Of a stretch of 64,000 nt of DNA, positions 3,178-63,832 are shown in pieces. Location of the stretch: positions 51,865-115,864 of the forward strand of contig CABZTX010000001.1 of assembly GCA_902528875.1 (NCBI GenBank), read 5' to 3'. Position numbers and translations under genes: made by a program. The notes under the pieces are model-generated. The model was not told where the DNA came from. It made no database searches and saw only the letters and a program-made list of their open reading frames with translations. The stretch's first letter is position 1, and every line of letters begins with the position of its first letter. The stretch is from an uncultured SAR86 cluster bacterium. Its GTDB lineage: Bacteria; Pseudomonadota; Gammaproteobacteria; Magnimaribacterales; D2472.

Positions 3178-5789
3178 TAATCTTTTTTATTTTGTTTCCA
3201 TTCACCATCAGAAAATACTGCCGTCCATTTAGTCTTCTTTCCGTCTTTTTCAGAAGCAACATAATGAATGTCATCAGTTCTGTTATATCTAATCACATAC
3301 TCATTACCATCTATATCTTTTTCAGGTGCACTGAGAAGATATGTATGTTTATCTTTATTTGGTAGAAAACGACATGCCTCATTGATTTCAAGATTAAGTT
3401 TGTTTATCTCATGAACCTTTGGTGCCCTTGTCTCTCTATTTTTTGGATATTGACTTGCAGCTAAAAATAAACCCTTCATGCTATCACGCAATAAATAATG
3501 ATCTTCACATTTAACACATTTTAAATTTTTTAGTTCAATAGGCTCCATTGTTATTGGTTTAGGTTCTCCATTTCTTTGTAAGGCTCTAGTGGCTCCACAA
3601 TTATCATTCAAACAACCGAAATATTTTCCAAACCTACCAGTTTTGAGCTGCATTTCAGAACCACATTTATGACATTCAAGAGTTGGACCGTCATAACCTT
3701 TTATTTTAAATAGGCCCTCTTCAATTAAATAGCCGTCACAATCTGGATTTTTTCCACAAACATGAAGCTTGCGATTTTCATCAATAAGGTAATTATCCAT
3801 GCTTGTCTCACACTTTGGGCATCTTTTCTTGATTAGAAGGTTTGTTGCCTCTTCAGTATCATCTACACTAATAGCTTCATCTCCAGATACCAAATTCAGT
3901 GTTTCTTTGCATTTATCATCTCCAACATTTTGGTAGCCAGAGCATCCTAAAAAAACTCCATTTGAAGAATTTCTTATCACCATATTTGTTTTACCACATG
4001 ATGGACAAGTAATGTCTGTAGATGTCGGTCGATTGCCTCTCATTCCATTTTCTTCTGAGGCAGAAACTAAATCTTTTTGGAAACTATTATAAAAATCATC
4101 CAAAACATTTCTCCAATTTAATTCACCTCTAGCAACACTATCTAAATTATTTTCAAGGTTAGCGGTAAATTCATAATCCATAATGTCATCAAAACTTTCA
4201 ATTAATCTTTCAGCAACAATATGACCAATTTTTTTTACAAAAAATCTTCTATTTTGAATTTCAACATACCCTCTATCTTGAATAGTAGATATTATGTTTG
4301 CATATGTGGATGGTCTACCTATTCCCTTCTTTTCTAGTTCTTTTACTAAGGCAGCTTCAGAGAATCTTGCTGGTGGTTTTGTAAATTTTTGATCGAGATT
4401 TACTTCATTTAATGTAAGTATTTCCCCCTCATCTAGTGGCGGTAAAATATCATCATCAGATTTAAAAGGTTGCGATATTCTTGTATATCCGTCGAAAACA
4501 ATTTCTCTTCCTTTTGCCGTAAATGTGTATTCACCCATATTAATTTTGGCAATGGTCGATAAATATTCAGCATCTGGCATTTGTGATGATATATATTGTT
4601 GCCATATTAGTTGGTAAAGCCTTTTCTCTTCTTCAGTATGATTCATAAGATCATCTGCCGTAAGGTAAGCATTTGTTGGTCTTACAGCTTCATGTGCTTC
4701 TTGAGCGTTCTCAGTGCTTGAATAAATTCTGGGAGCATTAGTTAGGTATTTTTCACCAACCCTCTCACCGATAAAATTTCTAGCATCCTGTATAGACTCT
4801 TTGCTTAAACTTGGAGCATCAGTCCTCATGTAAGTTATATGTCCAGCCTCATAAAGCTTCTGAGCAACTCTCATTGTTCTTTTAACTGTAAAGCTTAACT
4901 TTGTACTCGCAGCCTGCTGAAGTGTAGATGTAATAAAAGGTGCTCTGGGTTTTGTTTTAACAGGTTTTTTTATAATTTCATCTATAGATATTTCTGAATT
5001 TTTGATTAGCTCATGTATTTTCATAGCTTCTTCATTCTTTAATAATGGTTGAGACTTTTTTCTGTTAAGTAAAAAGGGAATGCTTAAATCATCTTTATTA
5101 AGAATCATTGAAACTTCCCAAAACTCTTCTGGAATAAATTCTTGGATTAACCTTTCTCTTTCATCTAAAAGTCTCAAAGCAACAGATTGGACTCTTCCCG
5201 CAGAAAGACCTCTAGCAACTTTCTTCCACAGCAAAGGTGAAAGCTCGAAACCAATAACTTTGTCAAGAAACCTTCTTGCTCTGTAAGCTTTTACTAGATC
5301 TAAATCTATCTCTTTTGGATCCATAAAAGAATCTATGATGGCTGACTTTGTAATTTGATTAAATCTAACTCTTGAATACTCATATTTTTCAGGTCCAAGT
5401 GCCTCTTTGAGATGCCATGCTATAGCTTCTCCCTCTCGATCAAGGTCAGTTGCAAGATATATATGATCAACTCCTTTTGCAGATTTTTTTAATGACTTTA
5501 TTACTTTTTCTTTCTCAGGAATTATTTGCCAATCAGCCTTCCATCCATTATCTGGATCAACACCCATTCTCCTAATTAGTCTATTTCTTTCATTAATAGT
5601 TTTGAGTTTAATTTTCTCTTCAGGTGATAACTCTTTCGGAATTGATGCTCTTTTAGCATTTGGCAAAGCTTTTTTTGGAAGATCTCTTATGTGCCCAACA
5701 CTTGATTCAACAATATATTCTGATCCAAGATATTTTGAAATAGTCTTAGCTTTTGCAGGTGATTCTACTATTACTAGAGATTTAGCCAT
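3177..5789 (-). CDS. topA: DNA topoisomerase I
   Basis: 870 aa. Toprim start (LVIVESPAKAKTISKYLG), DLDREGEAI, active-site region ITYMRTD, and several C-terminal Cys4 zinc-ribbon repeats (CPSCG, CPKCE, CHKCG, CVKCE). Confidence 0.97.
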   Translation of the reverse strand: MAKSLVIVESPAKAKTISKYLGSEYIVESSVGHIRDLPKKALPNAKRASIPKELSPEEKIKLKTINERNRLIRRMGVDPDNGWKADWQIIPEKEKVIKSLKKSAKGVDHIYLATDLDREGEAIAWHLKEALGPEKYEYSRVRFNQITKSAIIDSFMDPKEIDLDLVKAYRARRFLDKVIGFELSPLLWKKVARGLSAGRVQSVALRLLDERERLIQEFIPEEFWEVSMILNKDDLSIPFLLNRKKSQPLLKNEEAMKIHELIKNSEISIDEIIKKPVKTKPRAPFITSTLQQAASTKLSFTVKRTMRVAQKLYEAGHITYMRTDAPSLSKESIQDARNFIGERVGEKYLTNAPRIYSSTENAQEAHEAVRPTNAYLTADDLMNHTEEEKRLYQLIWQQYISSQMPDAEYLSTIAKINMGEYTFTAKGREIVFDGYTRISQPFKSDDDILPPLDEGEILTLNEVNLDQKFTKPPARFSEAALVKELEKKGIGRPSTYANIISTIQDRGYVEIQNRRFFVKKIGHIVAERLIESFDDIMDYEFTANLENNLDSVARGELNWRNVLDDFYNSFQKDLVSASEENGMRGNRPTSTDITCPSCGKTNMVIRNSSNGVFLGCSGYQNVGDDKCKETLNLVSGDEAISVDDTEEATNLLIKKRCPKCETSMDNYLIDENRKLHVCGKNPDCDGYLIEEGLFKIKGYDGPTLECHKCGSEMQLKTGRFGKYFGCLNDNCGATRALQRNGEPKPITMEPIELKNLKCVKCEDHYLLRDSMKGLFLAASQYPKNRETRAPKVHEINKLNLEINEACRFLPNKDKHTYLLSAPEKDIDGNEYVIRYNRTDDIHYVASEKDGKKTKWTAVFSDGEWKQNKKD

Positions 5790-5858
5790 TATTAATATTT
5801 TTATTCCTTTTTTATGAATATCATTAATTGGGTAGTATTTGCAAGATAAATTTTTAAA

Positions 5859-6299
5859 TTATTTTATTTGATTCAATTTATCAATAATTAATTTTAATTC
5901 GCTGATATCATCAATTTCATTCCAAATAAACTTAATATTCTTTTCTGTAAAAATTATTTCATTAATACTTTCTGAGACTTTTTCAATTTGCAAATTAATA
6001 TTTACAAATCTATCAGAGTACTTAAATTTGACAGGAGAATACAACAATAATTTGCCTTTGTCTCTAACATAGTGTGCTTCTTTAAGTTCTGATTTATTTT
6101 TAATCTGATAGTAGACTTCATCTTTCTTATAATTTTTAAAGTCATTTGATCCATAAAGTGCAGAGGTAATGTTTGCGCCAAGCTTTCTGGCTTCCATTCT
6201 CAATTTAGATATTTTTTGCGATTTCTTTGATGGTATTGCTAGTGAGACAGAACCAATTAAAAAAAGTAATGCCAAAAAAAAGACAAGATACTCAATCAT
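5859..6299 (-). CDS. Hypothetical membrane-anchored protein (146 aa)
   Basis: Single N-terminal TM helix (YLVFFLALLFLIGSVSLAI). Start is 2 nt after the pyrD stop. No known motif. Confidence 0.5.
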   Translation of the reverse strand: MIEYLVFFLALLFLIGSVSLAIPSKKSQKISKLRMEARKLGANITSALYGSNDFKNYKKDEVYYQIKNKSELKEAHYVRDKGKLLLYSPVKFKYSDRFVNINLQIEKVSESINEIIFTEKNIKFIWNEIDDISELKLIIDKLNQIK

Positions 6300-6300
6300 T

Positions 6301-7290
6301 TCAAATGCTCAAAATTTCTTGAATAATTTTTGGTCCTTTTATTACAAAACCAGTATATATTTGAACCAGTCCAGCTCCAGCATTAACTTTTTCATTAAAA
6401 TCTTGTTTTGAGATTACTCCTCCAACACCAATTATTGGAATACTTTTTGACAGAGAGCTTATATATGATATTTTTTCAGTGCTCCTTTTCATTAATGGTG
6501 CTCCTGAAACTCCACCTTCAATTGATTTAAAATTATCTTGCAATAAATTTGATTTATCGATGGATGTATTAGTTGCAATAATTCCAGCTATAGATGAGTT
6601 ATTAATTAACTTTAAAATATTTCTTACACTTTTGTTATTTTCATCAGGAGATATTTTGATAAAAATTGGTTTAGAAATATTTAAATCTTTTGATTTTGTG
6701 TCAATCTTTTCAATAAGTTCTTTTAAGTAGTCTTCTTTATGCAAATCCCTTAAATTTGGAGTATTTGGAGAAGAAATATTGATCGTTATATAGTCTGCAT
6801 GCTCATGAACTTTCTCCAAGCAAATTAAATAATCTTTAATTCTCTTTTCACCTACTGATTTTTTATTAGCTCCTATATTTACACCAACAACTCCATCATA
6901 TTTTCTTTTCTTTAAATTTTTAACAAGATAATCGACTCCTTTATTGTTAAACCCTAAGCTATTTATAATTGAGTTTTCTTTAAAATTTCTATGGACCCTG
7001 GGTTTATTATTACCTTGTTGAGAGACTGGGGTAACGGTTCCTACCTCCAAAAAACCAAAACCCAAGCTACCTAAGCAATCTATAAAATCACCATTTTTGT
7101 CCAACCCAGCTGCTGTACCAAGTCTGTTTTTAAATTTGATATTTGCAAATGTAATGATTTCATCTTTTGATATTTTTTTAAAAAAAATATTAAGTAAATT
7201 AATTTTATATAAAAAATTTAGAGAGTTTAATGAAATAGAATGTGCTGCTTCTGGTGGAAAAATCTTTATAACTTTAAGAAAAAAATTCAA
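6301..7290 (-). CDS. pyrD: Dihydroorotate dehydrogenase (quinone), class 2
   Basis: 329 aa. GTAAGLDKNG, GFLEVGTVTP, GFNNKG, INISSPNTPNLR, GGVSG, GVGGV. Confidence 0.93.
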   Translation of the reverse strand: MNFFLKVIKIFPPEAAHSISLNSLNFLYKINLLNIFFKKISKDEIITFANIKFKNRLGTAAGLDKNGDFIDCLGSLGFGFLEVGTVTPVSQQGNNKPRVHRNFKENSIINSLGFNNKGVDYLVKNLKKRKYDGVVGVNIGANKKSVGEKRIKDYLICLEKVHEHADYITINISSPNTPNLRDLHKEDYLKELIEKIDTKSKDLNISKPIFIKISPDENNKSVRNILKLINNSSIAGIIATNTSIDKSNLLQDNFKSIEGGVSGAPLMKRSTEKISYISSLSKSIPIIGVGGVISKQDFNEKVNAGAGLVQIYTGFVIKGPKIIQEILSI

Positions 7291-8150
7291 ATAATATCCT
7301 TGATTATTTCTTTGATCTTTTTGTTTATTGCTTTATCTTTCAATGCAAGCGCAATGGTAGCATGAACAAATCCTTCTTTACTACCACAATCAAATTTCTG
7401 ACCATCATATATACATCCAAATACTTCTTCATCTTCAATTTGAAGTTTTATTGCGTTAGTTAATTGAATTTCATTAGATGAATCACATTTTACTTTTTTT
7501 AAATACTTAAATATTGATGGTGTGAAAACGTATCTGCCTAGTATTGCGATATCTGACGGTGCATTTTTTGCTAATGGTTTTTCAACCATATCACTTATTT
7601 GAATTATTTTATTACTTACTATTCCTGGTTTAATCACACCATAATTATGAATATTGGCTTTATCTACTTTATTTAATCCTATCACCGTGCTGTTTGTTTT
7701 TTTATTGAGCGATATTATTTGATTTAAACATGTTTTTTTTGATATAAATAAATCATCCGGCAGCAAAACCACAAAAGATTCATTCTTTATATATTTTTCA
7801 GCTTGCAATACTGCATCACCTAGACCTTTTTGGGATTTCTGATTAACATATTTAAAGGTTACTTTTTCGAATATCTTGGGATTAAGCTTTTCTATAAAAT
7901 TATTCTTACCAGATTTGATGAGTCTAGATTCGATTTTTTTGTTCTTTTTAAAATGTTTTTCTATTGAATTTTTTTCATTGCTAGTTATGAATATAATTTC
8001 ATTAATGCCTTCTTTTATTGCCTCCTCCACAGCATATTGAACAAGGGGTTTATCTATGATGGGTAGCATTTCTTTCGGCGTTGCTTTTGAAGCTGGAAGA
8101 AATCTAGTTCCAAGTCCTGCAACAGGCAGTACTGCTTTTTTAATAATCAT
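7287..8150 (-). CDS. galU: UTP--glucose-1-phosphate uridylyltransferase
   Basis: 287 aa. KAVLPVAGLGTRFLPASKATPKEMLPIIDKP, GLGDAV, VEKP. Confidence 0.93.
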   Translation of the reverse strand: MIIKKAVLPVAGLGTRFLPASKATPKEMLPIIDKPLVQYAVEEAIKEGINEIIFITSNEKNSIEKHFKKNKKIESRLIKSGKNNFIEKLNPKIFEKVTFKYVNQKSQKGLGDAVLQAEKYIKNESFVVLLPDDLFISKKTCLNQIISLNKKTNSTVIGLNKVDKANIHNYGVIKPGIVSNKIIQISDMVEKPLAKNAPSDIAILGRYVFTPSIFKYLKKVKCDSSNEIQLTNAIKLQIEDEEVFGCIYDGQKFDCGSKEGFVHATIALALKDKAINKKIKEIIKDII

Positions 8151-8779
8151 TTACCTATTAAGCTTAAATTTATAAATTTACATATTATAGCAAAAGCAAT
8201 TCCTGAAACTAATCCACCTAGATGTGCAAAGTTTGCAACTGAACCAAATCCAAATAGATCTAAAAGCCCCAAAAAACCTAGAAGCATCCAGATAATCATA
8301 AAAAGGTATAAAGCAGGTGGAATATCATATCTTTGATAAGGTGAATCCATTTCATTTATCATGCAATATCCTATTAAGCCGTAAATGACCCCTGAAAGAC
8401 CTCCAAATAAAGTCGAACTTACCCAGTAAAACTGAAGAAAATTACTTGAAATTGAAGACAATAAAACAAGTGCTAAAAATAAAAATTTTCCATCAATTTT
8501 TTCAATTTGTTTACCAAGTATGTAAATCCACAAGGAATTAAAAGCAAGGTGAGCAATAGAAAAATGCAGAAACATTGGAGTTATTAATCGCCACCACTGA
8601 TTTTGATTAAAAAATGTTTCATTAAATGTTGATATTGAAACATACCCAAGATTTGAAAAATTTATTTTTGTATATGTGAATGGCTCAATAACTGAAATAA
8701 CTGAGCCAAAGTTAGAAATAACACTCAAAAGTGCTGCTAGAGTAATAATTGGAATATATATAGTACTAAATATTTTCAA
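8147..8779 (-). CDS. Rhomboid-family intramembrane serine protease
   Basis: 210 aa, polytopic. WRLITPMFLHFSIAHLAFN (HxxxN), GLSGVIYG (GxSG Ser), AHLGGLVSG (catalytic His). Confidence 0.85.
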   Translation of the reverse strand: MKIFSTIYIPIITLAALLSVISNFGSVISVIEPFTYTKINFSNLGYVSISTFNETFFNQNQWWRLITPMFLHFSIAHLAFNSLWIYILGKQIEKIDGKFLFLALVLLSSISSNFLQFYWVSSTLFGGLSGVIYGLIGYCMINEMDSPYQRYDIPPALYLFMIIWMLLGFLGLLDLFGFGSVANFAHLGGLVSGIAFAIICKFINLSLIGK

Positions 8780-31972: not shown

Positions 31973-33127
31973 TTAATCTAGATTGACTTCTTTTTCTGCT
32001 TCAAACCAAGGCAAGTCTACAACAATTGAGGATATTTTTTCATAAGGTGCCTGGACAATTATCTCAGTTCCTGGTTTAGAATAGTGAATATCAACTATTG
32101 CTAAGCCAATATTTTTTTCTAATCTTGGAGAGAAAAAGCATCTTGAAAGTCGTCCAATTTTTGTATCCTTATCATCAAGCACTGGCCAAAAATTCTCTGG
32201 TACTTTTAAAATTGGTTCTCCTTCAAGTTCAACACCAACTAGTTTTTCTTTTAACCCAGCTTTGTTGATTCTTTTTAAGGCCTCTTTGCCTATAAAATCA
32301 ATGTCTTGATCCAAGTCAATCAATCTCTCTAACCCAATCGTATAGGGGCTATGCTCTCGACCAAAGTCACTTCCATAAGATAAAAGTCCACCTTCTATTG
32401 TTCTAATTGTATTCGGAGCAATTACAGCACCATTAAATTCCTTTGCGGCCTCGTATACAATTTCAAAAAGCTCATTGCCTAATTTTCTATCTTGCAAATA
32501 GAGTTCATAGCTTAATTCTCCACTCCAACCAGTTCTTGCAATTACCATTGGAATTTTCTCGATAGATGTCTCTCTAGCTTTATAGTAACCAAGATCATCA
32601 TGCTCTCCATTAAAAAGTTTTTGAATTAATTTTCCAGATTTAGGTCCACTTATTTGTAAGGGAGATACATCAGGCTCAATTACTGTTACATCCAATCCAG
32701 AATTTATTGCAATGCCTTGAAGCCACAAAAGCACATCTCCATCACCTGGAGAAATCCAAAATTTATTATCTTCAAGTCTCAATAAACAAGCATCATTTAT
32801 TATTCCTCCATCTGAATCCATCAACAAAATATATTTGCAAAAACCTATTGAGCATTTTGATAAATTTCTTGGAGTAATAAGCCTTACAAAAGCATATGCA
32901 TCTGGTCCGGTAATTTCTACCTGACGTTCGGCAGCAAAATCTCCGAAAGTAACATCGTTAACCAGACTATGATACTCTTTCTCTGGCCCAGAGAATCCGG
33001 TAGGTAAATACATTTTATTGTAGACAGTAAAGCCAGTAACTCCATATTTAAGCGTAGAATCAAAATAAGGCGATTTCCTAATTCTGGATCCGATACCTAT
33101 AAGCAGTGGCAGCTTTGATGTTGACAT
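31973..33127 (-). CDS. GcvT-family aminomethyltransferase, DmdA-like (possible DMSP demethylase)
   Basis: 384 aa. RIRKSPYF, FTVYNKMYLP, ERQVEITGPDA, GGIINDACLLRL, EPDVSPLQISGPK, IEGGLLSYG, DFIGKEAL. The block order matches remembered DmdA sequences. Family membership is secure; substrate is not. Confidence 0.6.
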   Translation of the reverse strand: MSTSKLPLLIGIGSRIRKSPYFDSTLKYGVTGFTVYNKMYLPTGFSGPEKEYHSLVNDVTFGDFAAERQVEITGPDAYAFVRLITPRNLSKCSIGFCKYILLMDSDGGIINDACLLRLEDNKFWISPGDGDVLLWLQGIAINSGLDVTVIEPDVSPLQISGPKSGKLIQKLFNGEHDDLGYYKARETSIEKIPMVIARTGWSGELSYELYLQDRKLGNELFEIVYEAAKEFNGAVIAPNTIRTIEGGLLSYGSDFGREHSPYTIGLERLIDLDQDIDFIGKEALKRINKAGLKEKLVGVELEGEPILKVPENFWPVLDDKDTKIGRLSRCFFSPRLEKNIGLAIVDIHYSKPGTEIIVQAPYEKISSIVVDLPWFEAEKEVNLD

Positions 33128-33231
33128 ATTTACCTTTGTTTTTTTTGCTATTTTAATCCTAAAATATTGCTATAGTAAATGAATAATTTCGATATTTAGA
33201 CTATTATCTATTAAAGGAATTAGGGAGCATT

Positions 33232-34335
33232 ATGGGTAAAAAAAGATTTTTTGATGACAGATTAAAATATCTATCGTTTATTCAAAATACAAGTGAAAAA
33301 AAATGTATTTCTGAAAGAATTTATCCTCATGTTGCAAGAATGCCTGAGAATAAAACTTACCTAAGAATCTTAGATGCTGGTACTGGTGACGGAACTATTA
33401 AATCAAATGTAATTAAAAGTTTTCATAGATATCATCCATACACTTCTCTGTTAATTACTGGAAAAGAAGTAAGTTATGAGGATCTTAAAAATACACTAGA
33501 AAAAATGCCTGACAGATTTGTTGAACATCCAAATCTGCTAGTTACCATGACCAATGTTAAATTTTCTGAGTTAGGTTCTATAGAAAGTTCAAATAAAATT
33601 GATGATAAAAAAGTTAAAAAATTTAATCTTGTTTTAAAAAGTGATAATTCATTTGATTTTAATCAACAAATTACAGGAAGCTTGCTTGGGAATTTCATAA
33701 AAAAAAATTGGGGAATTGAAATAGATTCAAAGGGAAGAACTTCATACTCTAATCCTTGTATTGTAAGAATTTATAGAGATGACCATAAAAGATATCTAGA
33801 ATCTTTTATTGAAAACGATTACGAAAATAACAATTACGATTTAATTATTGCCTCACAAGCATACAGAGCAGCTGCAACCGTTAACTCAAAAGTAAAAAAT
33901 GTTATAGGGCCTCTAATGAGGCTTCTTAATAAATCTGGAAAGCTCCTTGTAACTCACTCTTCTGGAGGTCGTGCTGTGCAAAAAATTTTAAAGGTTGCAT
34001 TTAAAGACAAAGAAGCTTTCCCGAACACAGCAAAAGATATTGTTGATTTCTTAAAAGATAATCCTGTAGGAAAAAATAATCGATATTCATTTGTAAAACC
34101 AATAAGTTATGGGTTTAACTTTAAAAGAGCTCCAGATCAAACTGTAGCTGAGTTATTTGGTCATGGTATAGATGCTAAGTGGGCTAATATCCTTTATGTG
34201 GGACAAATTCCTGAAAAAGATATTCGGGCTTTAGATCATAAAACAGCACTTCTTAAGAAGGTAAAAAATGAAATAAAAAAAGCAGGTCAGATACAATTTA
34301 AAAATGAAATGTTTACAATTAAAAAATTAAGATAG
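33232..34335 (+). CDS. Class-I SAM-methyltransferase-like protein with a large insertion (function unknown)
   Basis: 367 aa. AGGGAG RBS. Motif I LRILDAGTGDGT, later YDLIIASQAY and LLNKSGKLLV, with about 130 aa inserted between them. No closer assignment possible by eye. Confidence 0.55.
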   Translation: MGKKRFFDDRLKYLSFIQNTSEKKCISERIYPHVARMPENKTYLRILDAGTGDGTIKSNVIKSFHRYHPYTSLLITGKEVSYEDLKNTLEKMPDRFVEHPNLLVTMTNVKFSELGSIESSNKIDDKKVKKFNLVLKSDNSFDFNQQITGSLLGNFIKKNWGIEIDSKGRTSYSNPCIVRIYRDDHKRYLESFIENDYENNNYDLIIASQAYRAAATVNSKVKNVIGPLMRLLNKSGKLLVTHSSGGRAVQKILKVAFKDKEAFPNTAKDIVDFLKDNPVGKNNRYSFVKPISYGFNFKRAPDQTVAELFGHGIDAKWANILYVGQIPEKDIRALDHKTALLKKVKNEIKKAGQIQFKNEMFTIKKLR

Positions 34336-34745
34336 TGAAAATTCTTGTTATGGGCCTTCCTGGAAGTGGTAAAACATACTTAGCAGAAAGATTGCAGCCT
34401 CTGTTAAATGCTGCTTGGTATAATGCTGATATAGTTAGAAAAATGGCAAATGATTGGGATTTTTCTCCTGAAGCAAGAATAAGACAAAGTTTAAGAATGA
34501 GAAACCTTGCAGATTTTGAAAAAAAACAAGGAAGAATTGTGATATGTGATTTTGTTTGTCCAACCAAAAAAACAAAAGATAATTTTGATCCTGACATTAC
34601 AATTTGGATGAATACAATAGAATCAGGTAGATATGAAGATACCAATAAAATGTTTGAAGAACCAAAAGAGGTTAATTTTGTTATTACAGAAATGAATGAC
34701 AATAATCATAAAATAATTTCAAAAAAAATTCTAAATCATGTTTAA
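34335..34745 (+). CDS. Minimal P-loop kinase, APS-kinase (CysC)-like
   Basis: 136 aa. GTG start overlaps the upstream TAG by 1 nt. ILVMGLPGSGKTYLAERL (Walker A). NADIVRKMANDWDFSPEARIRQSLRMRNLADFEKKQGRIVICDFVCP parallels CysC DGDNVR..DLGFSxxDRxENIRRxxEVAxLxxxAGxxVLxxFISP. Confidence 0.6.
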   Translation: MKILVMGLPGSGKTYLAERLQPLLNAAWYNADIVRKMANDWDFSPEARIRQSLRMRNLADFEKKQGRIVICDFVCPTKKTKDNFDPDITIWMNTIESGRYEDTNKMFEEPKEVNFVITEMNDNNHKIISKKILNHV

Positions 34746-35127
34746 TCCAAAAAAACCTACAGTTCAAATGCTTGGACGATGGCAACCTTGGCATCAAGGC
34801 CATCAGGAATTATTTAAACGATGTTTAGCAAAAACAGGGCAAGTTATTATTCAAGTTCGTGATGTTTCGGGAGATTCGGATGGAGCTGAACAAAATGATA
34901 ATCCATTTTCATGGAAAGAAGTTTGTAAGAATATAGAAGATAGTCTTAAAAAAGATAGTTATGAGAGAGGAATAGATTACGAAATTATGTTAGTTCCAAA
35001 TATTACCAATATAACTTATGGAAGAAATGTAGGATATGTTTTTGAAGAAGAGTCGTTTGATGATGAAATATCCTCTATAAGCGCTACAAAAATAAGAGAT
35101 GATTTAAGAAACAAGGGAGAACTATAA
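34738..35127 (+). CDS. Minimal HxGH nucleotidyltransferase (cytidylyl/adenylyltransferase superfamily; archaeal-NMNAT/TagD-like)
   Basis: 129 aa. 8-nt overlap with the kinase gene. LGRWQPWHQGH (GRxQPxHxGH) and C-terminal ISATKIRDDL (ISxTxIR). Confidence 0.65.
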   Translation: MFNPKKPTVQMLGRWQPWHQGHQELFKRCLAKTGQVIIQVRDVSGDSDGAEQNDNPFSWKEVCKNIEDSLKKDSYERGIDYEIMLVPNITNITYGRNVGYVFEEESFDDEISSISATKIRDDLRNKGEL

Positions 35128-35129
35128 TT

Positions 35130-36302
35130 TCAATCAATCTTGAAAGTTATACCAGCATTTTGTTCAAGTCTTTCAGCGAGCTTCAAACCAAACAGGGATG
35201 CTGGAGTGTATATGCCTCCTTCGGTATCTTTTACATCCTTAAGTAGACAAATAGTTGATTCAACAATCATTTTTGATGTTGATCCATATCCAGGATCCAT
35301 ATTACCAACTACAGATGCTTTTATAACCGTATCATCTACATCTGCACAAAACAGAAGATCATAACTGCCTTTTTCTCGCTTCTCCCTATTAGGTCCTTCG
35401 CCAGGTTTTGGTCCATCTTTACCACCAATTGGATTAGACTTTGATATAAGTTCTGCAACAGCTTTGCCCTCTTCACCATCTCCAGCTATCCACATTTCAT
35501 TATATTGAAAATCTTTTCCATATTTATGATTCATTAATACGTTAGATCTGTGAACATTTTTCGTATTTATTGGCGCCATAAAAAAAGGTGCAACCCAAAC
35601 ACCTAATTCTTCATCATATTTTAGTTTTGAATCATCTTCTTGTTTAACACCTTGAAAACCTTCACATAATGCGAAAGGATTAATCAATACATTGAAAAGT
35701 TCTGGATTTGTCTTTAATGCAGCCATGGTAGCTGATAATGAGGCAGCTGTACCTCCTGAAAACTCACCATCCATAACCCTCACCCTACCTCTTACTGATG
35801 AAGCATATTCACCAAATTTTGATTTAGCTTCTTCTTGAACAAATAGAACCCCTAAGTCAAAAGGAATACTATCAAAACCACATGAAAATATTATTCTTGA
35901 ACCGGACTTTTTAGCATCATCAGAGCACTCTGAAATAATTTTATGCATCCATCCTGGTTCACCACAGAGATCTAAATAGTCGGTTCCTGACGACGCGCAA
36001 GTTCGAACAATTTTTTCGCCATATAACTGATAGGGTCCTACAGTAGTTAAAATTATTTTGGTTTTTTTAACTAAATTATCTATTGCAGATTGATTATCAC
36101 TATCAACTTCTAAAATTTCAATTTCCTCTGACAAATTTAATTTATTTTTAAGAGTTAATAGCTTATCTTTACTTCTTCCTGCAATAGCCCATGAAAAACC
36201 AGAATTCGGTGGATACTTTTCAAAAGCATACTCGACTACCAATTTACCAGTAAATCCGCTTGCACCGAATATTACAAAATCAAATTTATTAGAACCTTCC
36301 AT
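35130..36302 (-). CDS. Saccharopine dehydrogenase-like (SCCPDH-type) NAD(P)-binding oxidoreductase
   Basis: 390 aa. FDFVIFGASGFTGKLVVEY Rossmann start, DYLDLCGEP, FSCGFDSIPFD. Confidence 0.75.
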   Translation of the reverse strand: MEGSNKFDFVIFGASGFTGKLVVEYAFEKYPPNSGFSWAIAGRSKDKLLTLKNKLNLSEEIEILEVDSDNQSAIDNLVKKTKIILTTVGPYQLYGEKIVRTCASSGTDYLDLCGEPGWMHKIISECSDDAKKSGSRIIFSCGFDSIPFDLGVLFVQEEAKSKFGEYASSVRGRVRVMDGEFSGGTAASLSATMAALKTNPELFNVLINPFALCEGFQGVKQEDDSKLKYDEELGVWVAPFFMAPINTKNVHRSNVLMNHKYGKDFQYNEMWIAGDGEEGKAVAELISKSNPIGGKDGPKPGEGPNREKREKGSYDLLFCADVDDTVIKASVVGNMDPGYGSTSKMIVESTICLLKDVKDTEGGIYTPASLFGLKLAERLEQNAGITFKID

Positions 36303-36373: not shown

Positions 36374-38182
36374 ATGTTGCAGTCAATAAAAGAATTTTTA
36401 AGAGTCATTGGAGAAATTAGATATATTGTTCCTTTATTAAGATATAAGTGGCCCGATCCTGATGATAACGCTTCATTAGCTCATTCGTTTGAGCAAAGTG
36501 TAGAAAAGTATAAAAATAAGAACTTTATATTTTTTGAAGATGAGACTTGGACATATTCAGAAATGAATAATGCTGCAAATATCCTAGCTCATAAGTTAAT
36601 TGAGGATGGTATTTCACATGGCGATAAAGTTATCTTATTTATGGAGAACAGGCCAAGTTATGTTTCAACAATATTGGCACTCAATAAGATTGGAGCTGTC
36701 GGTGTTTTAATAAATACTAGCCTCAAAGGTGAGCCTTTAATTCATTGTATTAATTCTTCCAATTCTAAAAAATGCATTTTTGGTGCAGAGCTATCTGATT
36801 CTCTTGAGGGAGTTCTTAACAGTATTAATATAACAGCAAAATCTGATATTTATTGGGTGCAAGATCTTCCTAATGATAATTGTCCAGAATGGGCAACTGA
36901 TGTTAATAAAATTTTAGATTTATCTAAAACAGATAATTTAAGTCAAACAAACAATGTTACTGCAAAGGATATAGCTTTTTATATTTTTACTTCTGGAACA
37001 ACTGGAGTTCCCAAGGCAGCATTATTTCCAAATGTAAAAATAGTTGCCTCATCAACCAATATCACACGTGGTGGATACAGAATGAATAGTGAAGATTGTT
37101 TATATAATTGTCTTCCTCTTTATCATTCTACTGGGATGATGTTAGGACTATGTGCATGCATTCATGTAGGTGCATCTACATTTATTAAAAGAAAATTTTC
37201 AGCTTCCTCTTTTTGGAAAGAAGTTAAAAAATATAATACAACCGCCTTCATATACGTTGGAGAATTATGTCGATATCTCAGTTTACAGGATCCTGTTGAT
37301 GAAGAAAAAGATAATCCTATTACAAAAATGGTTGGAAATGGACTTCGTCCAGATTTATGGGACTGTTTTAGAAATAGATTTTGTGTGGATAGAATATGTG
37401 AAATATATGGTGCTAGTGAGGGTAACGGTTTCTTTATGAATTTGCTAAATAAGGATCAAACTATTGGAATGACTAATAACAAAATTGAATTACTTGAATA
37501 TGACATTGGAGAAAATAAATTAAAAATAGATATAGATGGTAATTTTATAAGAGTGAAAGAAAATCAACCTGGTCTAGCATTGGTAGAAATTGGTCCAAAC
37601 GCAATTTTTAATGGCTACACTGATAAAAAAGCAAGTGAAGAAAAAATTTTTAGAAACGTCTTTAATGACGGTGATAGTTGGTTTAACACCGGAGATATTC
37701 TTAAAACCATGGATGTTGGTTTTGCTCTTGGAAGAAAACATTATCAATTTGTTGACAGAGTTGGAGATACTTTTAGATGGAAATCAGAAAATGTTTCTAC
37801 GAATGAAGTTGCAGAAATATTAAATTTGTTCAATCAAGTTAATATGGCAAATGTTTACGGAGTCAAAATTCCTAAAAGCGAAGGAAGAGCTGGTATGGTC
37901 GCTTTTAATTGCGAACTCAAAGAGTTCAACTGGAGTGACTTTTCTGATTTTGTTGCTGAAAAGTTACCAAAATATGCTCAGCCTGTTTTTATAAGAATTA
38001 TTAAAGAGCTGGAAACAACAGGAACTTTTAAATTAAAGAAAAATGACCTTAGAGAAGAAGCTTATCATTTAGATAAAATTAAAGGTGATCAGATTTATAT
38101 CAAAAAACCTGGTAATAGTTTATATGAGGTTTTAGATCAAAATTATTATGACATAATAATGAGTGGTGAAGCTGGCTTTTGA
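36374..38182 (+). CDS. Long/very-long-chain acyl-CoA synthetase, FATP (fatty-acid transport protein)-type
   Basis: 602 aa. YIFTSGTTGVPKAA, YGASEGN, and the FATP signature FVDRVGDTFRWKSENVSTNEV. Confidence 0.88.
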   Translation: MLQSIKEFLRVIGEIRYIVPLLRYKWPDPDDNASLAHSFEQSVEKYKNKNFIFFEDETWTYSEMNNAANILAHKLIEDGISHGDKVILFMENRPSYVSTILALNKIGAVGVLINTSLKGEPLIHCINSSNSKKCIFGAELSDSLEGVLNSINITAKSDIYWVQDLPNDNCPEWATDVNKILDLSKTDNLSQTNNVTAKDIAFYIFTSGTTGVPKAALFPNVKIVASSTNITRGGYRMNSEDCLYNCLPLYHSTGMMLGLCACIHVGASTFIKRKFSASSFWKEVKKYNTTAFIYVGELCRYLSLQDPVDEEKDNPITKMVGNGLRPDLWDCFRNRFCVDRICEIYGASEGNGFFMNLLNKDQTIGMTNNKIELLEYDIGENKLKIDIDGNFIRVKENQPGLALVEIGPNAIFNGYTDKKASEEKIFRNVFNDGDSWFNTGDILKTMDVGFALGRKHYQFVDRVGDTFRWKSENVSTNEVAEILNLFNQVNMANVYGVKIPKSEGRAGMVAFNCELKEFNWSDFSDFVAEKLPKYAQPVFIRIIKELETTGTFKLKKNDLREEAYHLDKIKGDQIYIKKPGNSLYEVLDQNYYDIIMSGEAGF

Positions 38183-39228: not shown

Positions 39229-40032
39229 TTAACTATCTTTCCAATTTGGTTTTCTCTTTTCTAGGAATGATCCTATACCTTCTATTGCATCGTGATCTAA
39301 GATGTTCTCAGACATTATTTGAGATGTATAATTATATGCTCCAGCTAGATCTAATTCGTGTTGCCTATAAAAAGCTTTTTTACCTGTCTCAATAGTTAAA
39401 GAAGGTTTCTTAGCTATTTTTTTCGCAAGATTATTAACATTAGTTTTAAGATCATCTGATGATACAAAATCATTAATCAAGCCGATTCTTTTTGCCTCAG
39501 ACGCATCGATTAAGTCCCCAGTTAAAAGCATTTTCATTGCATCTTTTTTCTTAACGTTTCTTGATAATGCAACCATAGGGGTTGAGCAAAATAGTCCTAT
39601 GTTTACTCCCGGCGTCGCAAACCTGGCCTCAGAAGAAGATATTGCCAAATCACAGCTTGCAACAAGCTGACAGCCCGCAGCAGTAGCAATACCATCAACC
39701 TCTGCAATAATAGGTTTTGGACAATTCACAATAAGTTGCATCAATTGAGAACACTGATCGAAAAGGTTTTTAAAATATGTCTTGCCTTTATCATCATTTT
39801 GTCTTGCATTTGTAATTTCTTTCAAGTTATGACCAGAAGAAAAAATGGTTCCAATAGCATCAATGATAATTACCTTAACTCTTTTATCCAAAGAGAGAGA
39901 TTTAATTTTATCCTCTAAAGCCGTCATCATTTCTTCAGATAAAGAATTACCACTATTTTCATCATTTAAAGTAAGACGAGTTATCCCATCGTCAATATTG
40001 TTTAAAAATACAATGTCATTTTTCTTTTTCAT
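39229..40032 (-). CDS. Enoyl-CoA hydratase/isomerase family protein
   Basis: 267 aa. FSSGHNL, AAGCQLVASCDLAISS, EGIGSFLEKRKPNW. Confidence 0.85.
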   Translation of the reverse strand: MKKKNDIVFLNNIDDGITRLTLNDENSGNSLSEEMMTALEDKIKSLSLDKRVKVIIIDAIGTIFSSGHNLKEITNARQNDDKGKTYFKNLFDQCSQLMQLIVNCPKPIIAEVDGIATAAGCQLVASCDLAISSSEARFATPGVNIGLFCSTPMVALSRNVKKKDAMKMLLTGDLIDASEAKRIGLINDFVSSDDLKTNVNNLAKKIAKKPSLTIETGKKAFYRQHELDLAGAYNYTSQIMSENILDHDAIEGIGSFLEKRKPNWKDS

Positions 40033-40070: not shown

Positions 40071-40481
40071 TTATGTAATCTCCAAAACAATTTTAGGACA
40101 TCTATCCATAATTACTTTTAATCCTGCTTGCTCAGCGAGGTATGCAGCTTTTTCATTAATCACTCCTAATTGCATCCATAATATCTTTGCATCAACATTT
40201 ATTGCCTCCTCTGCAACGTTAAATGCAAATTCACTAGATCTAAAAACATCAACCATATCAATTTTTTTATCTATCTCATTTAAATTTTTAAAACATTTTT
40301 TTCCAAGAATTAAATTATCTACATTTGGATTGACTGGTAAAACATCATATCCACTATCAATCAAGAATTTCATCACTTTATAGCTATCTCTTTCAGGATT
40401 TTGGCTTGCACCAACAACGGCAATTGTCTTTACAGTTTGAAGTAAGGCTATTAGATAACCATCCTCATATTCTATTTTCAT
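40071..40481 (-). CDS. CoA-binding protein (YccU-like)
   Basis: 136 aa. KTIAVVGASQNPERDSYKV, VNP, DVFR. Confidence 0.8.
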   Translation of the reverse strand: MKIEYEDGYLIALLQTVKTIAVVGASQNPERDSYKVMKFLIDSGYDVLPVNPNVDNLILGKKCFKNLNEIDKKIDMVDVFRSSEFAFNVAEEAINVDAKILWMQLGVINEKAAYLAEQAGLKVIMDRCPKIVLEIT

Positions 40482-63076: not shown

Positions 63077-63832
63077 CTACTCTGAAATATATGAATTTGA
63101 GAAAACTATATCGACTTGAAAGTTATCCTTAACATTGTTAATTTTTGCATTGCCACCAGAAGATTCAATTATTGCAGCGCCAGCAATAATATCCCATAAA
63201 AATACTCCATTTTCTTTGTAAAGCTCTGCTTTGCCTGATGCTATATAACAAGATGCAATTGCAGCAGAGCCAATCATTCTAACTTTTTTCCAAGTTTGCA
63301 TATCTTCAATCATTTTTTTAAGGGAATCATTTTCATAATTTGTGTTCACAGGTAATCCAGTAACTAAAACTGCTTCATTTTTACTATCAATCTTTGAAAC
63401 TTCAATTTCTTTATTATTTAAAAAAGCTTCTTTGGTAATATTATTAGCCTGATATAAATCATCATTATAAAAATCATAAATTACTCCTAATATTGGTTTC
63501 ATATTGCATACAAGACCTATTGATACACAACAGATTGGAATATCTCTACTAAAATTTGCAGTTCCATCTAAAGGATCAATAATCCAAAAGGTATCGCCTA
63601 AATTTTCTACAGATTTTCCACTCTCTTCAGCTAAAATAGGATATTTTGAAATAGAACTAATTGATTGTTTTATTAAATTTTCAGATTCGACATCTGCTTG
63701 CAACTTTGTATCTTTTGGTCTGCTTTCTATCCTTACATTTAGTTTCGATTTATTTTTTAGTAAATATTTTCCAGCATTTAAAGCAGCCTCGACTGCATAA
63801 CTCAGCTCTTGAGAATAGTCATTTTTAATCAT
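63077..63832 (-). CDS. Inositol monophosphatase family protein
   Basis: 251 aa. AEESG, WIIDPLDGTANF, WDIIAGAAI. Confidence 0.88.
   Translation of the reverse strand: MIKNDYSQELSYAVEAALNAGKYLLKNKSKLNVRIESRPKDTKLQADVESENLIKQSISSISKYPILAEESGKSVENLGDTFWIIDPLDGTANFSRDIPICCVSIGLVCNMKPILGVIYDFYNDDLYQANNITKEAFLNNKEIEVSKIDSKNEAVLVTGLPVNTNYENDSLKKMIEDMQTWKKVRMIGSAAIASCYIASGKAELYKENGVFLWDIIAGAAIIESSGGNAKINNVKDNFQVDIVFSNSYISE

Follow-up and report, generated by a model that had tools for sequence, protein, structure and literature searches.

A translationally coupled APS-kinase-like and HxGH nucleotidyltransferase gene pair in SAR86, usually fused in phages, is a candidate minimal PAPS synthase

Results

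We analysed a 64,000-nucleotide (nt) stretch of DNA from an uncultured SAR86 cluster bacterium (contig CABZTX010000001.1, positions 51,865 to 115,864; hereafter the window, with a GC content of 32%) and, within it, three chained forward-strand genes. These genes, P1, P2 and P3, encode a methyltransferase-fold protein, a relative of adenylyl-sulfate (APS) kinase and an HxGH nucleotidyltransferase, respectively (Table 1). P2 and P3 form a conserved unit, usually fused in phages, that is a candidate synthase of 3'-phosphoadenylyl sulfate (PAPS), whereas P1 is a lineage-specific neighbour. A first-pass annotation, made from the letters alone, had described the three as a self-contained operon of unknown pathway. 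Its open reading frame (ORF) coordinates, the TAGTG junction, the 8-nt overlap and the motifs it quoted (LRILDAGTGDGT, GLPGSGKTYLAERL, GRWQPWHQGH and ISATKIR) are all found in the sequence, the flanking genes are divergent and convergent as it had placed them, and its fold and family assignments for the three products hold in Pfam, profile and Foldseek searches.

P1, P2 and P3 are real genes and not chance ORFs, because their homologs are numerous: a word-indexed search returned 268 relatives of P1 (with 440 representative clusters), 5438 of P2 and 7598 of P3, with many homologs of all three lying in SAR86-type marine Gammaproteobacteria. The GTG start of P2 is supported by homologs beginning MKIL(I/V)MGLPGSGK. 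In relatives (L-numbers denote the loci compared) the P1/P2 junction is tight yet variable, with a 1-nt overlap in L007, a 4-nt overlap in L012 and a 2-nt gap in L124, and the P2/P3 overlap of L130 likewise measures 8 nt. A promoter and terminator scan of positions 33050-35300 gave no signal exceeding shuffled controls.

Table 1. Genes, junctions, motifs and other features of the window (window coordinates).
Feature	Position	Strand	Remarks
P1	33232-34335	+	367 aa, ATG start
P2	34335-34745	+	136 aa, GTG start
P3	34738-35127	+	129 aa, ATG start
AGGGAG, Shine-Dalgarno-like	33222..33227	+	4 nt 5' of the P1 start codon; read from the sequence
P1/P2 junction TAGTG	34333..34337	+	1-nt overlap; G of the P1 stop TAG is the G of the P2 start GTG
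P2/P3 overlap ATGTTTAA	34738..34745	+	8 nt; translational coupling
P2 Walker A/P-loop GLPGSGKT, residues 7-14	34353..34376	+	G7, L8, P9, G10, G12 and K13 invariant in the family
P2 APS-binding block NADIVRKMANDWDFSPEAR, residues 30-48	34422..34478	+	equivalent of canonical DGDxxR...GFSxxDR
P2 DFVCP, residues 72-76	34548..34562	+	counterpart of APS-kinase FISP; F73 and P76 invariant
P3 GRWQPWHQGH, residues 13-22	34774..34803	+	HxGH nucleotide-binding signature
P3 YGRNVGY, residues 94-100	35017..35037	+	family-specific invariant G-R-x-V-G-Y block
P3 ISATKIR, residues 114-120	35077..35097	+	SxTxxR phosphate-binding motif
P1 S-adenosylmethionine (SAM)-binding motif I LRILDAGTGDGT, residues 44-55	33361..33396	+	D48, A49, G50, T51, G52 and G54 invariant in 28 homologs
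dmdA-like gene, divergent flank	31973-33127	-	top NCBIfam match dimethylsulfoniopropionate (DMSP) demethylase NF009133, 340.5 bits vs 410 cutoff
Saccharopine-dehydrogenase-like gene, convergent flank	35130-36302	-	
DMSP-pathway-like gene, AMP-binding acyl-CoA ligase	36374-38182	+	
DMSP-pathway-like gene, enoyl-CoA hydratase (ECH)	39229-40032	-	
DMSP-pathway-like gene, CoA_binding_2	40071-40481	-	
Inositol-monophosphatase-family gene	63077-63832	-	NCBIfam matches split among SuhB-, HisN- and CysQ-type models, all under cutoff

The relation between P2 and P3 is clearest in phages. The 230-aa family PHROG 10255, annotated 'kinase', matches P2 over its positions 2-111 (2.4e-28) and P3 over positions 124-227 (5.2e-20), and P2 plus P3 align end to end, at about 40% identity, with the fusion proteins of phages Sano, Salvo, Bhz60 and DLP_6; cultured Sano/Salvo-type phages of Xylella, Stenotrophomonas and Xanthomonas encode the fusion, as does phage DLP_6. 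Of the best 80 IMG/VR loci, taken from at least 436 viral relatives, 78 have P2-P3 as one fused ORF, at about 50% identity; these loci come from few related lineages, and counts made on them are not independent events. The genomes of the GTDB carry P2 and P3 mostly as split and overlapping genes, in many Pelagibacteraceae, SAR86 and other marine Alpha- and Gammaproteobacteria. The pairing of a kinase with a nucleotidyltransferase to build an activated nucleotide, which the first-pass annotation had surmised, is thus borne out by the single fused ORF of phages.

The kinase domain also occurs in other company. In Ralstonia phage phiRSL1, the 'APS kinase' ORF238 (L016:3989-8348, ORF238-234) joins a P2-like N-terminal domain to an unrelated C-terminal half. 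Downstream of it come two glucosyltransferase genes and two genes resembling nucleotidyl-/NDP-sugar pyrophosphorylases, a setting that points to a different use of the kinase domain, in a glycan or DNA-modification cluster. The C-terminal or downstream proteins of phages phiRSL1 and RsoM2USA are unrelated to P3. Around the cultured Sano and DLP_6 fusions lie mostly hypothetical early genes, which are uninformative save for a NADAR gene considered below.

P1 does not share this distribution. It stands upstream of P2-P3 in one SAR86 subclade only (L116, L124, L127 and the close syntenic relatives L007-L015), and co-occurrence of the triad in close relatives is uninformative because the whole region is syntenic there. 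P1 was not found in 240 loci carrying P2 and/or P3 (80 + 80 viral, 80 metagenome), no relative of it was found in viral contigs, and it was found neither at any SAR11 locus with P2-P3 nor at most such SAR86 loci, among them L121 (from a complete genome), L129, L131 and L137, whose upstream genes are unrelated. Homologs of P1 stand alone, without P2-P3, in at least four lineages, at 69-71% identity (P0120, P0111) and at 31-37% (P0364, P0367). P2-P3 is the conserved unit and P1 a lineage-specific neighbour outside the module, and the first-pass picture of a self-contained triad gives way in the neighbourhood comparison, which ties P1 to P2-P3 in this one subclade only.

The product of P2 is very probably a minimal APS kinase with a shortened lid, to judge from its family matches and conserved residues. 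Against the Pfam model APS_kinase (PF01583) it scores 30.9 bits (gathering cutoff 21.1), with positions 5-91 of the 152-position profile aligned, i.e., the first 60%; it reaches 24.8 bits against TIGR00455, far under the equivalog cutoff of 138.7, and 32.7 bits against NF004041 (cutoff 127). When a P2-family profile of 18 diverse members was compared with the PDB, 26 solved APS kinases headed the matches (7e-16 for 2yvu), with PSTK as the family after them, at 1e-5. As in CysC, a P-loop, (D/N)xDxxR, FSxxxR and F(I/V)xP are present. NADIVR...DFSPEAR and DFVCP of P2 align in HMMER to the APS-kinase blocks of 2yvu, 3uie and 3cr7, with DFVCP opposite SFVSP or SFISP of the solved enzymes. D32, R35 and F43 are invariant in all family alignments, and R48 and Q51 show little or no variation. 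The family departs from CysC at single positions, most members having Asn in place of the first Asp of DGDxxR, with Cys or Ala replacing the Ser of FISP. It also departs in its length (136 aa in P2 against about 180-200 aa) and in a lid cut to GRYEDTN (GR(Y/F)xDTN in the family). A loss of intact Walker or lid residues, which the first-pass annotation had named as grounds for refutation, was not seen: Walker A and the substrate residues are intact and invariant, and the short lid keeps an invariant R99.

P3 is predicted from its sequence to be an adenylyltransferase of the HIGH superfamily and a truncated offshoot of the branch of nicotinamide mononucleotide (NMN) adenylyltransferases (NMNATs) of the NadM/NadR type. 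Among 18 diverse homologs, G13, R14, Q16, P17, H19, G21 and H22 of the HxGH signature are invariant, as are G95, R96, V98, G99 and Y100 of the G-R-x-V-G-Y block and T117, I119 and R120 of ISATKIR, a motif with conservation of 90% or more at I114, S115 and A116. ISATKIR is the counterpart of YSGTEIRRR in NMNAT and of SGTxxR in ATP sulfurylase (ATPS), for which we follow the published definitions of the HXXH and SGTxxR motifs (PMC3779200). The G-R-x-V-G-Y block is possibly the counterpart of the ATP-sulfurylase GRD loop (GRDHAG), in a segment where the AlphaFold2 (AF2) model has a predicted local distance difference test score (pLDDT) below 50.

By sequence and fold, the family closest to P3 is that of the archaeal/NadM/NadR-type NMNATs (TIGR01527; PDB 1f9a, 2qjt), with which it has GR(F/W/Y)QP(F/W)HxGH and SxTxIR in common. 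The resemblance covers one half of the enzyme. The P3-family profile matches archaeal NMNAT 1f9a at 7e-10 in the N-terminal ATP-binding half only, aligning residues 5-67 and, weakly, 110-135; between these blocks, about 25 residues of the 1f9a acceptor region have no equivalent in P3. Against TIGR01527, P3 scores 33.7 bits (cutoff 181.2) over profile positions 4-73 of 167. It is about 40 aa shorter than these nearest relatives, and the acceptor-binding (NMN) part is missing or unaligned, a loss that would fit a small anionic acceptor such as sulfate. Unlike those of NMNATs, the genomic partners of P3 are APS enzymes and not NAD enzymes. Its length of 129 aa is not exceptionally small, although the first-pass annotation had placed it near the minimum for the fold: TagD of B. 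subtilis is of the same size.

Cellular gene neighbourhoods connect the pair, and P3 by itself, with APS and PAPS. In four marine alphaproteobacterial species, the gene of the 3'-phosphoadenosine 5'-phosphate (PAP) phosphatase CysQ (TIGR01331, 288.3 bits, above the cutoff of 228.8) ends 11 nt before P2-P3. In SAR11 (L132, L134-L136), P3 without P2 heads an operon that continues with an aprM-like gene for a membrane protein, aprB (TIGR02060, 188.6 > 135.65), aprA (TIGR02061, 988.8 > 641.75), an ORF of 116 aa and tauE, and in other SAR11 species P2-P3 is convergent to the same apr cluster. Metagenomes repeat the pattern: among contigs with at least 1 kb downstream of a standalone P3, apr genes follow on the same strand in 33 of 35, and where P3 copies 78-82% identical are preceded by P2, apr is lacking in 12 of 13. 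The canonical sat gene of A. vinosum directly precedes aprMBA and is transcribed together with it (PMC3779200), and the SAR11 P3 occupies this slot, next to aprM-aprB-aprA on the upstream side and in the same orientation. P3 has HxxH and S(G/A)TxxR in common with this dissimilatory Sat, and its GRx(V)G block looks similar to the GRD loop, but by the sequence tests run it is no homolog of Sat and appears to derive from the NMNAT branch of the superfamily to which both belong. In the complete SAR86 genome L121, a gene for a YeiH-family putative sulfate exporter (PF03601, 169 bits) lies directly upstream of P2-P3.

Two further features of the SAR11 operon were recorded. A CADD-family/PqqC-like gene precedes it (L134:7306-7971; TIGR04305, 302 bits) and lies upstream in 52 of 76 metagenome contigs, and the 116-aa ORF between aprA and tauE (L134:11595-11945) is conserved and has no family match.

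Phage neighbourhoods bring in a user of PAPS. A protein encoded near the fusion is a sulfotransferase (Pfam Sulfotransfer_3, 2.3e-19; Sulfotransfer_1, 1.4e-13), and 17 of the 80 loci have such a gene no more than six genes away from the fusion, in the same orientation and for the most part upstream of it. In a reciprocal search that set out from the sulfotransferase, the kinase start falls 0-30 nt past the sulfotransferase stop in about 50 loci of that lineage. The kinase is accompanied by P3 in 29 of 80 sulfotransferase loci and stands without it in about 27; the kinase-only forms read NADEIRKEINKDLGFSxxDRxEQARRMG and are near-canonical APS kinases. Taken together with the cellular loci, all informative P2-P3 contexts involve APS or PAPS.

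The viral loci hold other genes as well. Some of the sulfotransferases at L033, L037, L039, L052, L070 and L096 are long (590-617 aa) and have an extra N-terminal region; several of these loci encode two sulfotransferases, a radical-SAM/SPASM protein, an FkbM methyltransferase, an epimerase/dehydratase and a second cytidylyltransferase-like protein, a gene content that points to a larger cassette for the tailoring of glycans or metabolites. A small protein with a DUF2061 domain, predicted to lie in the membrane (Pfam 2.4e-19, e.g., L086:6818-7021), adjoins the fusion in 11 viral loci, directly downstream in nine, and is fused to the kinase C-terminus as a 205-aa protein in two (L246:6276-6893, L247:13152-13769), which ties a domain of unknown function to APS kinase. 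A gene for a MazG-like pyrophosphatase stands a few genes upstream of the kinase-nucleotidyltransferase fusion in Sano-type phages. On a contig binned as Candidatus Saccharibacteria (L146, about 3475-8423), a 618-aa sulfotransferase, with 780 bits to the viral sulfotransferase hidden Markov model (HMM), is encoded five genes upstream of a P2-like kinase; this looks like a phage contig mis-binned into a metagenome-assembled genome. Fused forms beside epimerase genes on three contigs of SAR11 single-amplified genomes (L103, L104, L106) may be phage or island DNA.

P1 is predicted to have the fold of class-I SAM-dependent methyltransferases and lies outside the named Pfam and NCBIfam families. 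Searches of Pfam, NCBIfam, PHROG and PDB sequences gave no match, ten distant relatives likewise had no Pfam or NCBIfam match, and a precomputed PF13847 tag was carried by 2 of 120 P1 homologs among the matches listed. The AF2 model is usable (predicted TM-score 0.80) and Foldseek relates it with probability 1.00 to many methyltransferases in the PDB, led by histamine N-methyltransferase 1jqd (E 9e-10) and followed by the thiol S-methyltransferases GtmA and TmtA. TM-scores to these enzymes are 0.44-0.59, because of large insertions, at 10-13% identity. As in small-molecule class-I enzymes, the fold is of the Rossmann type, motif I has the form GxGxG and strand 2 is followed by an acidic residue; P1 differs from them in its large insertions, low identity and lack of a Pfam match. 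D48, A49, G50, T51, G52 and G54 (DAGTGDG) and E79, which ends the next strand, are invariant in 28 homologs, and we regard P1 as an active-looking, predicted small-molecule SAM-dependent methyltransferase.

An assignment of P1 as an MddH-type thiol methyltransferase was considered and rejected, MddH being a 24-kDa UbiE-family enzyme (PMC11445057) and P1 having no such match. In a SAR86-like lineage (L003-L006, L102), the neighbours of a lone P1 are a gene of the glutathione-dependent formaldehyde-activating family (GFA), a small multidrug resistance (SMR) efflux gene, a cupin gene and a SnoaL-like gene. These surroundings differ from those in the window and are equally uninformative.

Elsewhere in the window, the protein encoded at 63077-63832 would, if it is a PAP phosphatase, fit the use of PAPS by this organism. 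The module of the window also lies amid genes resembling those of DMSP demethylation. In one SAR11 arrangement (context A), genes for an ECH and a CoA_binding_2 protein directly follow P2-P3; the window proteins of these two families are 53-55% identical to them, P2 and P3 themselves show about the same identity (54-57%) to their SAR11 counterparts, and the window orthologs lie about 4 kb from the module. The module and these genes could represent a shared or transferred organosulfur island.

Discussion

We put the probability at roughly 0.55 that P2-P3 is a split, miniature PAPS synthase, in which P3 would be, from its genomic context, a minimal ATP sulfurylase, and that it is accompanied here by an unrelated, lineage-specific methyltransferase. 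Its parts differ in strength. That P3 handles APS in some way we hold to be likely, and P3 is a strong candidate for a non-orthologous displacement of Sat, with P2-P3 as a minimal PAPS synthase. A minimal ATP sulfurylase is the most economical assignment because APS is the sole metabolite common to the partners of near-identical P3s, namely APS kinase and APS reductase. We infer the reaction ATP + sulfate <-> APS + pyrophosphate (PPi) because the signatures of ATP/PPi-dependent HIGH nucleotidyltransferases are invariant in P3. The first-pass annotation had held that the pair corresponds to no known pathway; the context indicates the very first of the examples it had listed, Sat plus CysC giving PAPS, by way of a miniature non-orthologous sulfurylase.

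We therefore propose the following scheme as a working model. P2-P3 would represent, in split form, the cellular version of a widespread enzyme of two domains that phages usually encode as a fusion. P2 would catalyse ATP + APS -> PAPS + ADP, as its homology and conserved residues suggest, and P3, a domain of about 125 aa that has lost the NMN-binding segment, would catalyse the reversible formation of APS from ATP and sulfate indicated by its context. Coupled by the 8-nt overlap or fused, the two would make up a minimal PAPS synthase of about 260 aa. In phages, the PAPS may feed the adjacent sulfotransferase. In SAR11, P3 without P2, in the slot of sat, may run in reverse (APS + PPi -> ATP + sulfate) and complete an AprBA-dependent oxidation of sulfite. 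In the SAR86 window the module would probably supply PAPS for some sulfation reaction, and P1 may be co-transcribed with P2-P3 in this lineage without a functional tie.

One close parallel is the bifunctional PAPS synthase, represented by metazoan PAPSS1/2 and also by the Sat/APS-kinase fusions of fungi and Aquifex. Like these, the phage fusion joins an APS-kinase domain and an HxxH-type adenylyltransferase domain, and the order, kinase at the N-terminus and transferase at the C-terminus, is that of PAPSS1; the P2 profile matched residues 55-141 of the 630-aa structure 1x6v. The proposed overall reaction is also the same, sulfate + 2 ATP -> PAPS. The differences are considerable: about 260 aa stand against about 620 aa in metazoan PAPSS, and the transferase half has about 125 aa against about 390 aa. 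P3 shows no detectable sequence resemblance to PF01747 and lacks both a PUA-like domain and a QXRN loop, the lid of P2 is shortened, and in cells P2 and P3 are separate, translationally coupled genes.

Several observations weigh against this interpretation. The nearest relatives of P3 are NMNATs, its match to the Pfam ATP-sulfurylase model stays under the cutoff (E 0.097, 12.5 bits against 24.3), and no Sat appears among the PDB matches of the P3 profile at E<=10. With its 129 aa, P3 also departs from the architecture of ATPS, in which a PUA-like N-domain is joined to a catalytic domain of about 200 aa. The QXRN loop as such was not found in P3, where the equivalent stretch reads GRWQP, and HXXH and SxTxxR are not specific for ATPS because they are common to the whole HIGH superfamily. 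AF2 modelled P3 poorly (pLDDT 63, and below 50 in the key segment 89-111), and the Foldseek matches of the model were generic HIGH-fold proteins, none at E<=1e-3, so that a sulfate pocket has no structural support. The genomic evidence has its own counterweights besides the relatedness of the viral loci: P3 is missing from about half of the sulfotransferase-kinase phage loci and is therefore dispensable there, and no sulfotransferase, apr gene or other user of PAPS was found in the 64-kb window, the viral sulfotransferase HMM included. Finally, in Sano-type phages a NADAR-domain gene (Pfam 6.4e-26; L001:6556-6999, which is gp34 of Sano; L019:2056-2499) lies upstream and runs 8 nt into the fusion gene at its start, a neighbour that hints at NAD/ADP-ribose metabolism and is not explained by sulfate activation.

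Other readings of the pair fare less well. The one that survives best, though we judge it unlikely, leaves P2 as an APS kinase and lets P3 act on APS otherwise, as an ADP-sulfurylase (APS:phosphate adenylyltransferase), an APS/PAPS hydrolase or a non-catalytic subunit that binds APS and passes it on to the kinase or the reductase. The context evidence fits it equally, as it fixes the shared metabolite APS and not the reaction, and it accords with the lack of detectable Sat homology. The invariance of HxGH and SxTxxR, which belong to PPi/ATP-dependent HIGH nucleotidyltransferases, argues against it, and a purely regulatory P3 would not need an invariant active site. The known APS:phosphate adenylyltransferases and APS hydrolases have the unrelated GalT/HIT fold.

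A single pathway of P1, P2 and P3 that makes or salvages a methylated nucleotide-linked metabolite, as the first-pass annotation had suggested, is largely refuted by the phyletic pattern and very improbable. The overlap chain in the window, kept in the close SAR86 relatives L116, L124 and L127, and the retained SAM-binding residues of P1 would be expected of it. The triad relatives are wholly syntenic, though, P1 is absent from the 240 viral and metagenome loci, the SAR11 loci and four other SAR86 loci described above, and its homologs occur alone in at least four lineages; nothing was found in support of the methylated metabolite itself.

Slightly less probable still is a NadR-like salvage of NAD, with P3 as an NMN adenylyltransferase and P2 as a (ribosyl)nicotinamide-type kinase. 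It would account for the archaeal/NadM NMNATs as best relatives of P3 in sequence and structure, for GRxQPxHxGH and for the NADAR gene overlapping the fusion in Sano-type phages. Against this stand the restriction of the NMNAT match to the ATP-binding half, at 33.7 of the 181.2 bits needed, and the character of P2, which is APS-kinase-like and not like ribosylnicotinamide kinase (AAA_28 at E 0.002, against 26 APS kinases topping the profile search); the linkages to aprMBA, cysQ and sulfotransferases would go unexplained. Chemistry of the coenzyme A type, in which P3 would adenylylate a 4'-phosphopantetheine-like ester as phosphopantetheine adenylyltransferase (PPAT) does and P2 would phosphorylate the 3'-OH as dephospho-CoA kinase (DPCK) does, is highly improbable: SAR11 context A with its orthologs near the module in the window, PPAT among the weak fold matches of P3, and CysQ, which also clears 3',5'-ADP released from CoA, speak for it, but the PPAT matches lie at E >0.1, no CoaE/DPCK occurs in the best 60 of 117 PDB profile matches of P2, and the linkage to sulfotransferase and aprMBA is left without an explanation.

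A miniature PAPS synthase would bear on several published descriptions of marine sulfur metabolism. Candidatus Pelagibacter ubique and other SAR11 lack sat and cysDNCHIJ and keep aprBA, and the five aprA-positive SAR11 strains are precisely those with an orphan cysC (PMC5069961). The aprAB genes are core genes of SAR11 under the strongest purifying selection, in a pathway called 'incomplete' (PMC12636525), and the APS pathways of SAR11 have continued to be called 'incomplete', with no sat, through 2025-26 (PMC5069961, PMC12636525, bioRxiv 10.64898/2026.04.03.716430). None of 135 complete Pelagibacter genomes has assimilatory sulfate reduction. SAR86 has dmdA and neither takes up nor reduces sulfate (PMC3358033). 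The viral cysC of aquatic viruses, an auxiliary metabolic gene (AMG), is listed under 'assimilatory sulfate reduction, not validated' (PMC12713726). PHROG 10255 and the viral 'cysC' AMGs are the same protein family as P2-P3, and existing annotations name the kinase half alone. Literature searches turned up no earlier account that covers the nucleotidyltransferase half, a mini sulfurylase or a viral module of sulfotransferase and cysC.

The wider proposition, to which we give an even chance, is that the P3 family is an unrecognised ATP sulfurylase of about 125 residues derived from NMNAT and the 'missing sat' of SAR11, that with P2 it provides the sole sulfate activation in SAR11 and SAR86, and that viral 'cysC' genes encode mini PAPS synthases feeding phage sulfotransferases. 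If so, a tiny non-orthologous sulfurylase in the slot of sat would close the gap in SAR11: the route from sulfite via APS to sulfate and ATP would be complete, and a substrate-level, ATP-yielding step would join marine organosulfur oxidation. It would also place sulfate activation in two abundant groups of marine bacteria, SAR11 and SAR86, that have both been described as without sulfate activation and assimilation. The very common viral AMG 'cysC' would have to be reread, from assimilatory sulfate reduction to a supply of PAPS for phage sulfotransferases, which would imply that a host or phage molecule is sulfated during infection. P3 itself would then be the smallest known sulfate-activating enzyme, in which the acceptor was switched from NMN to sulfate by domain reduction.

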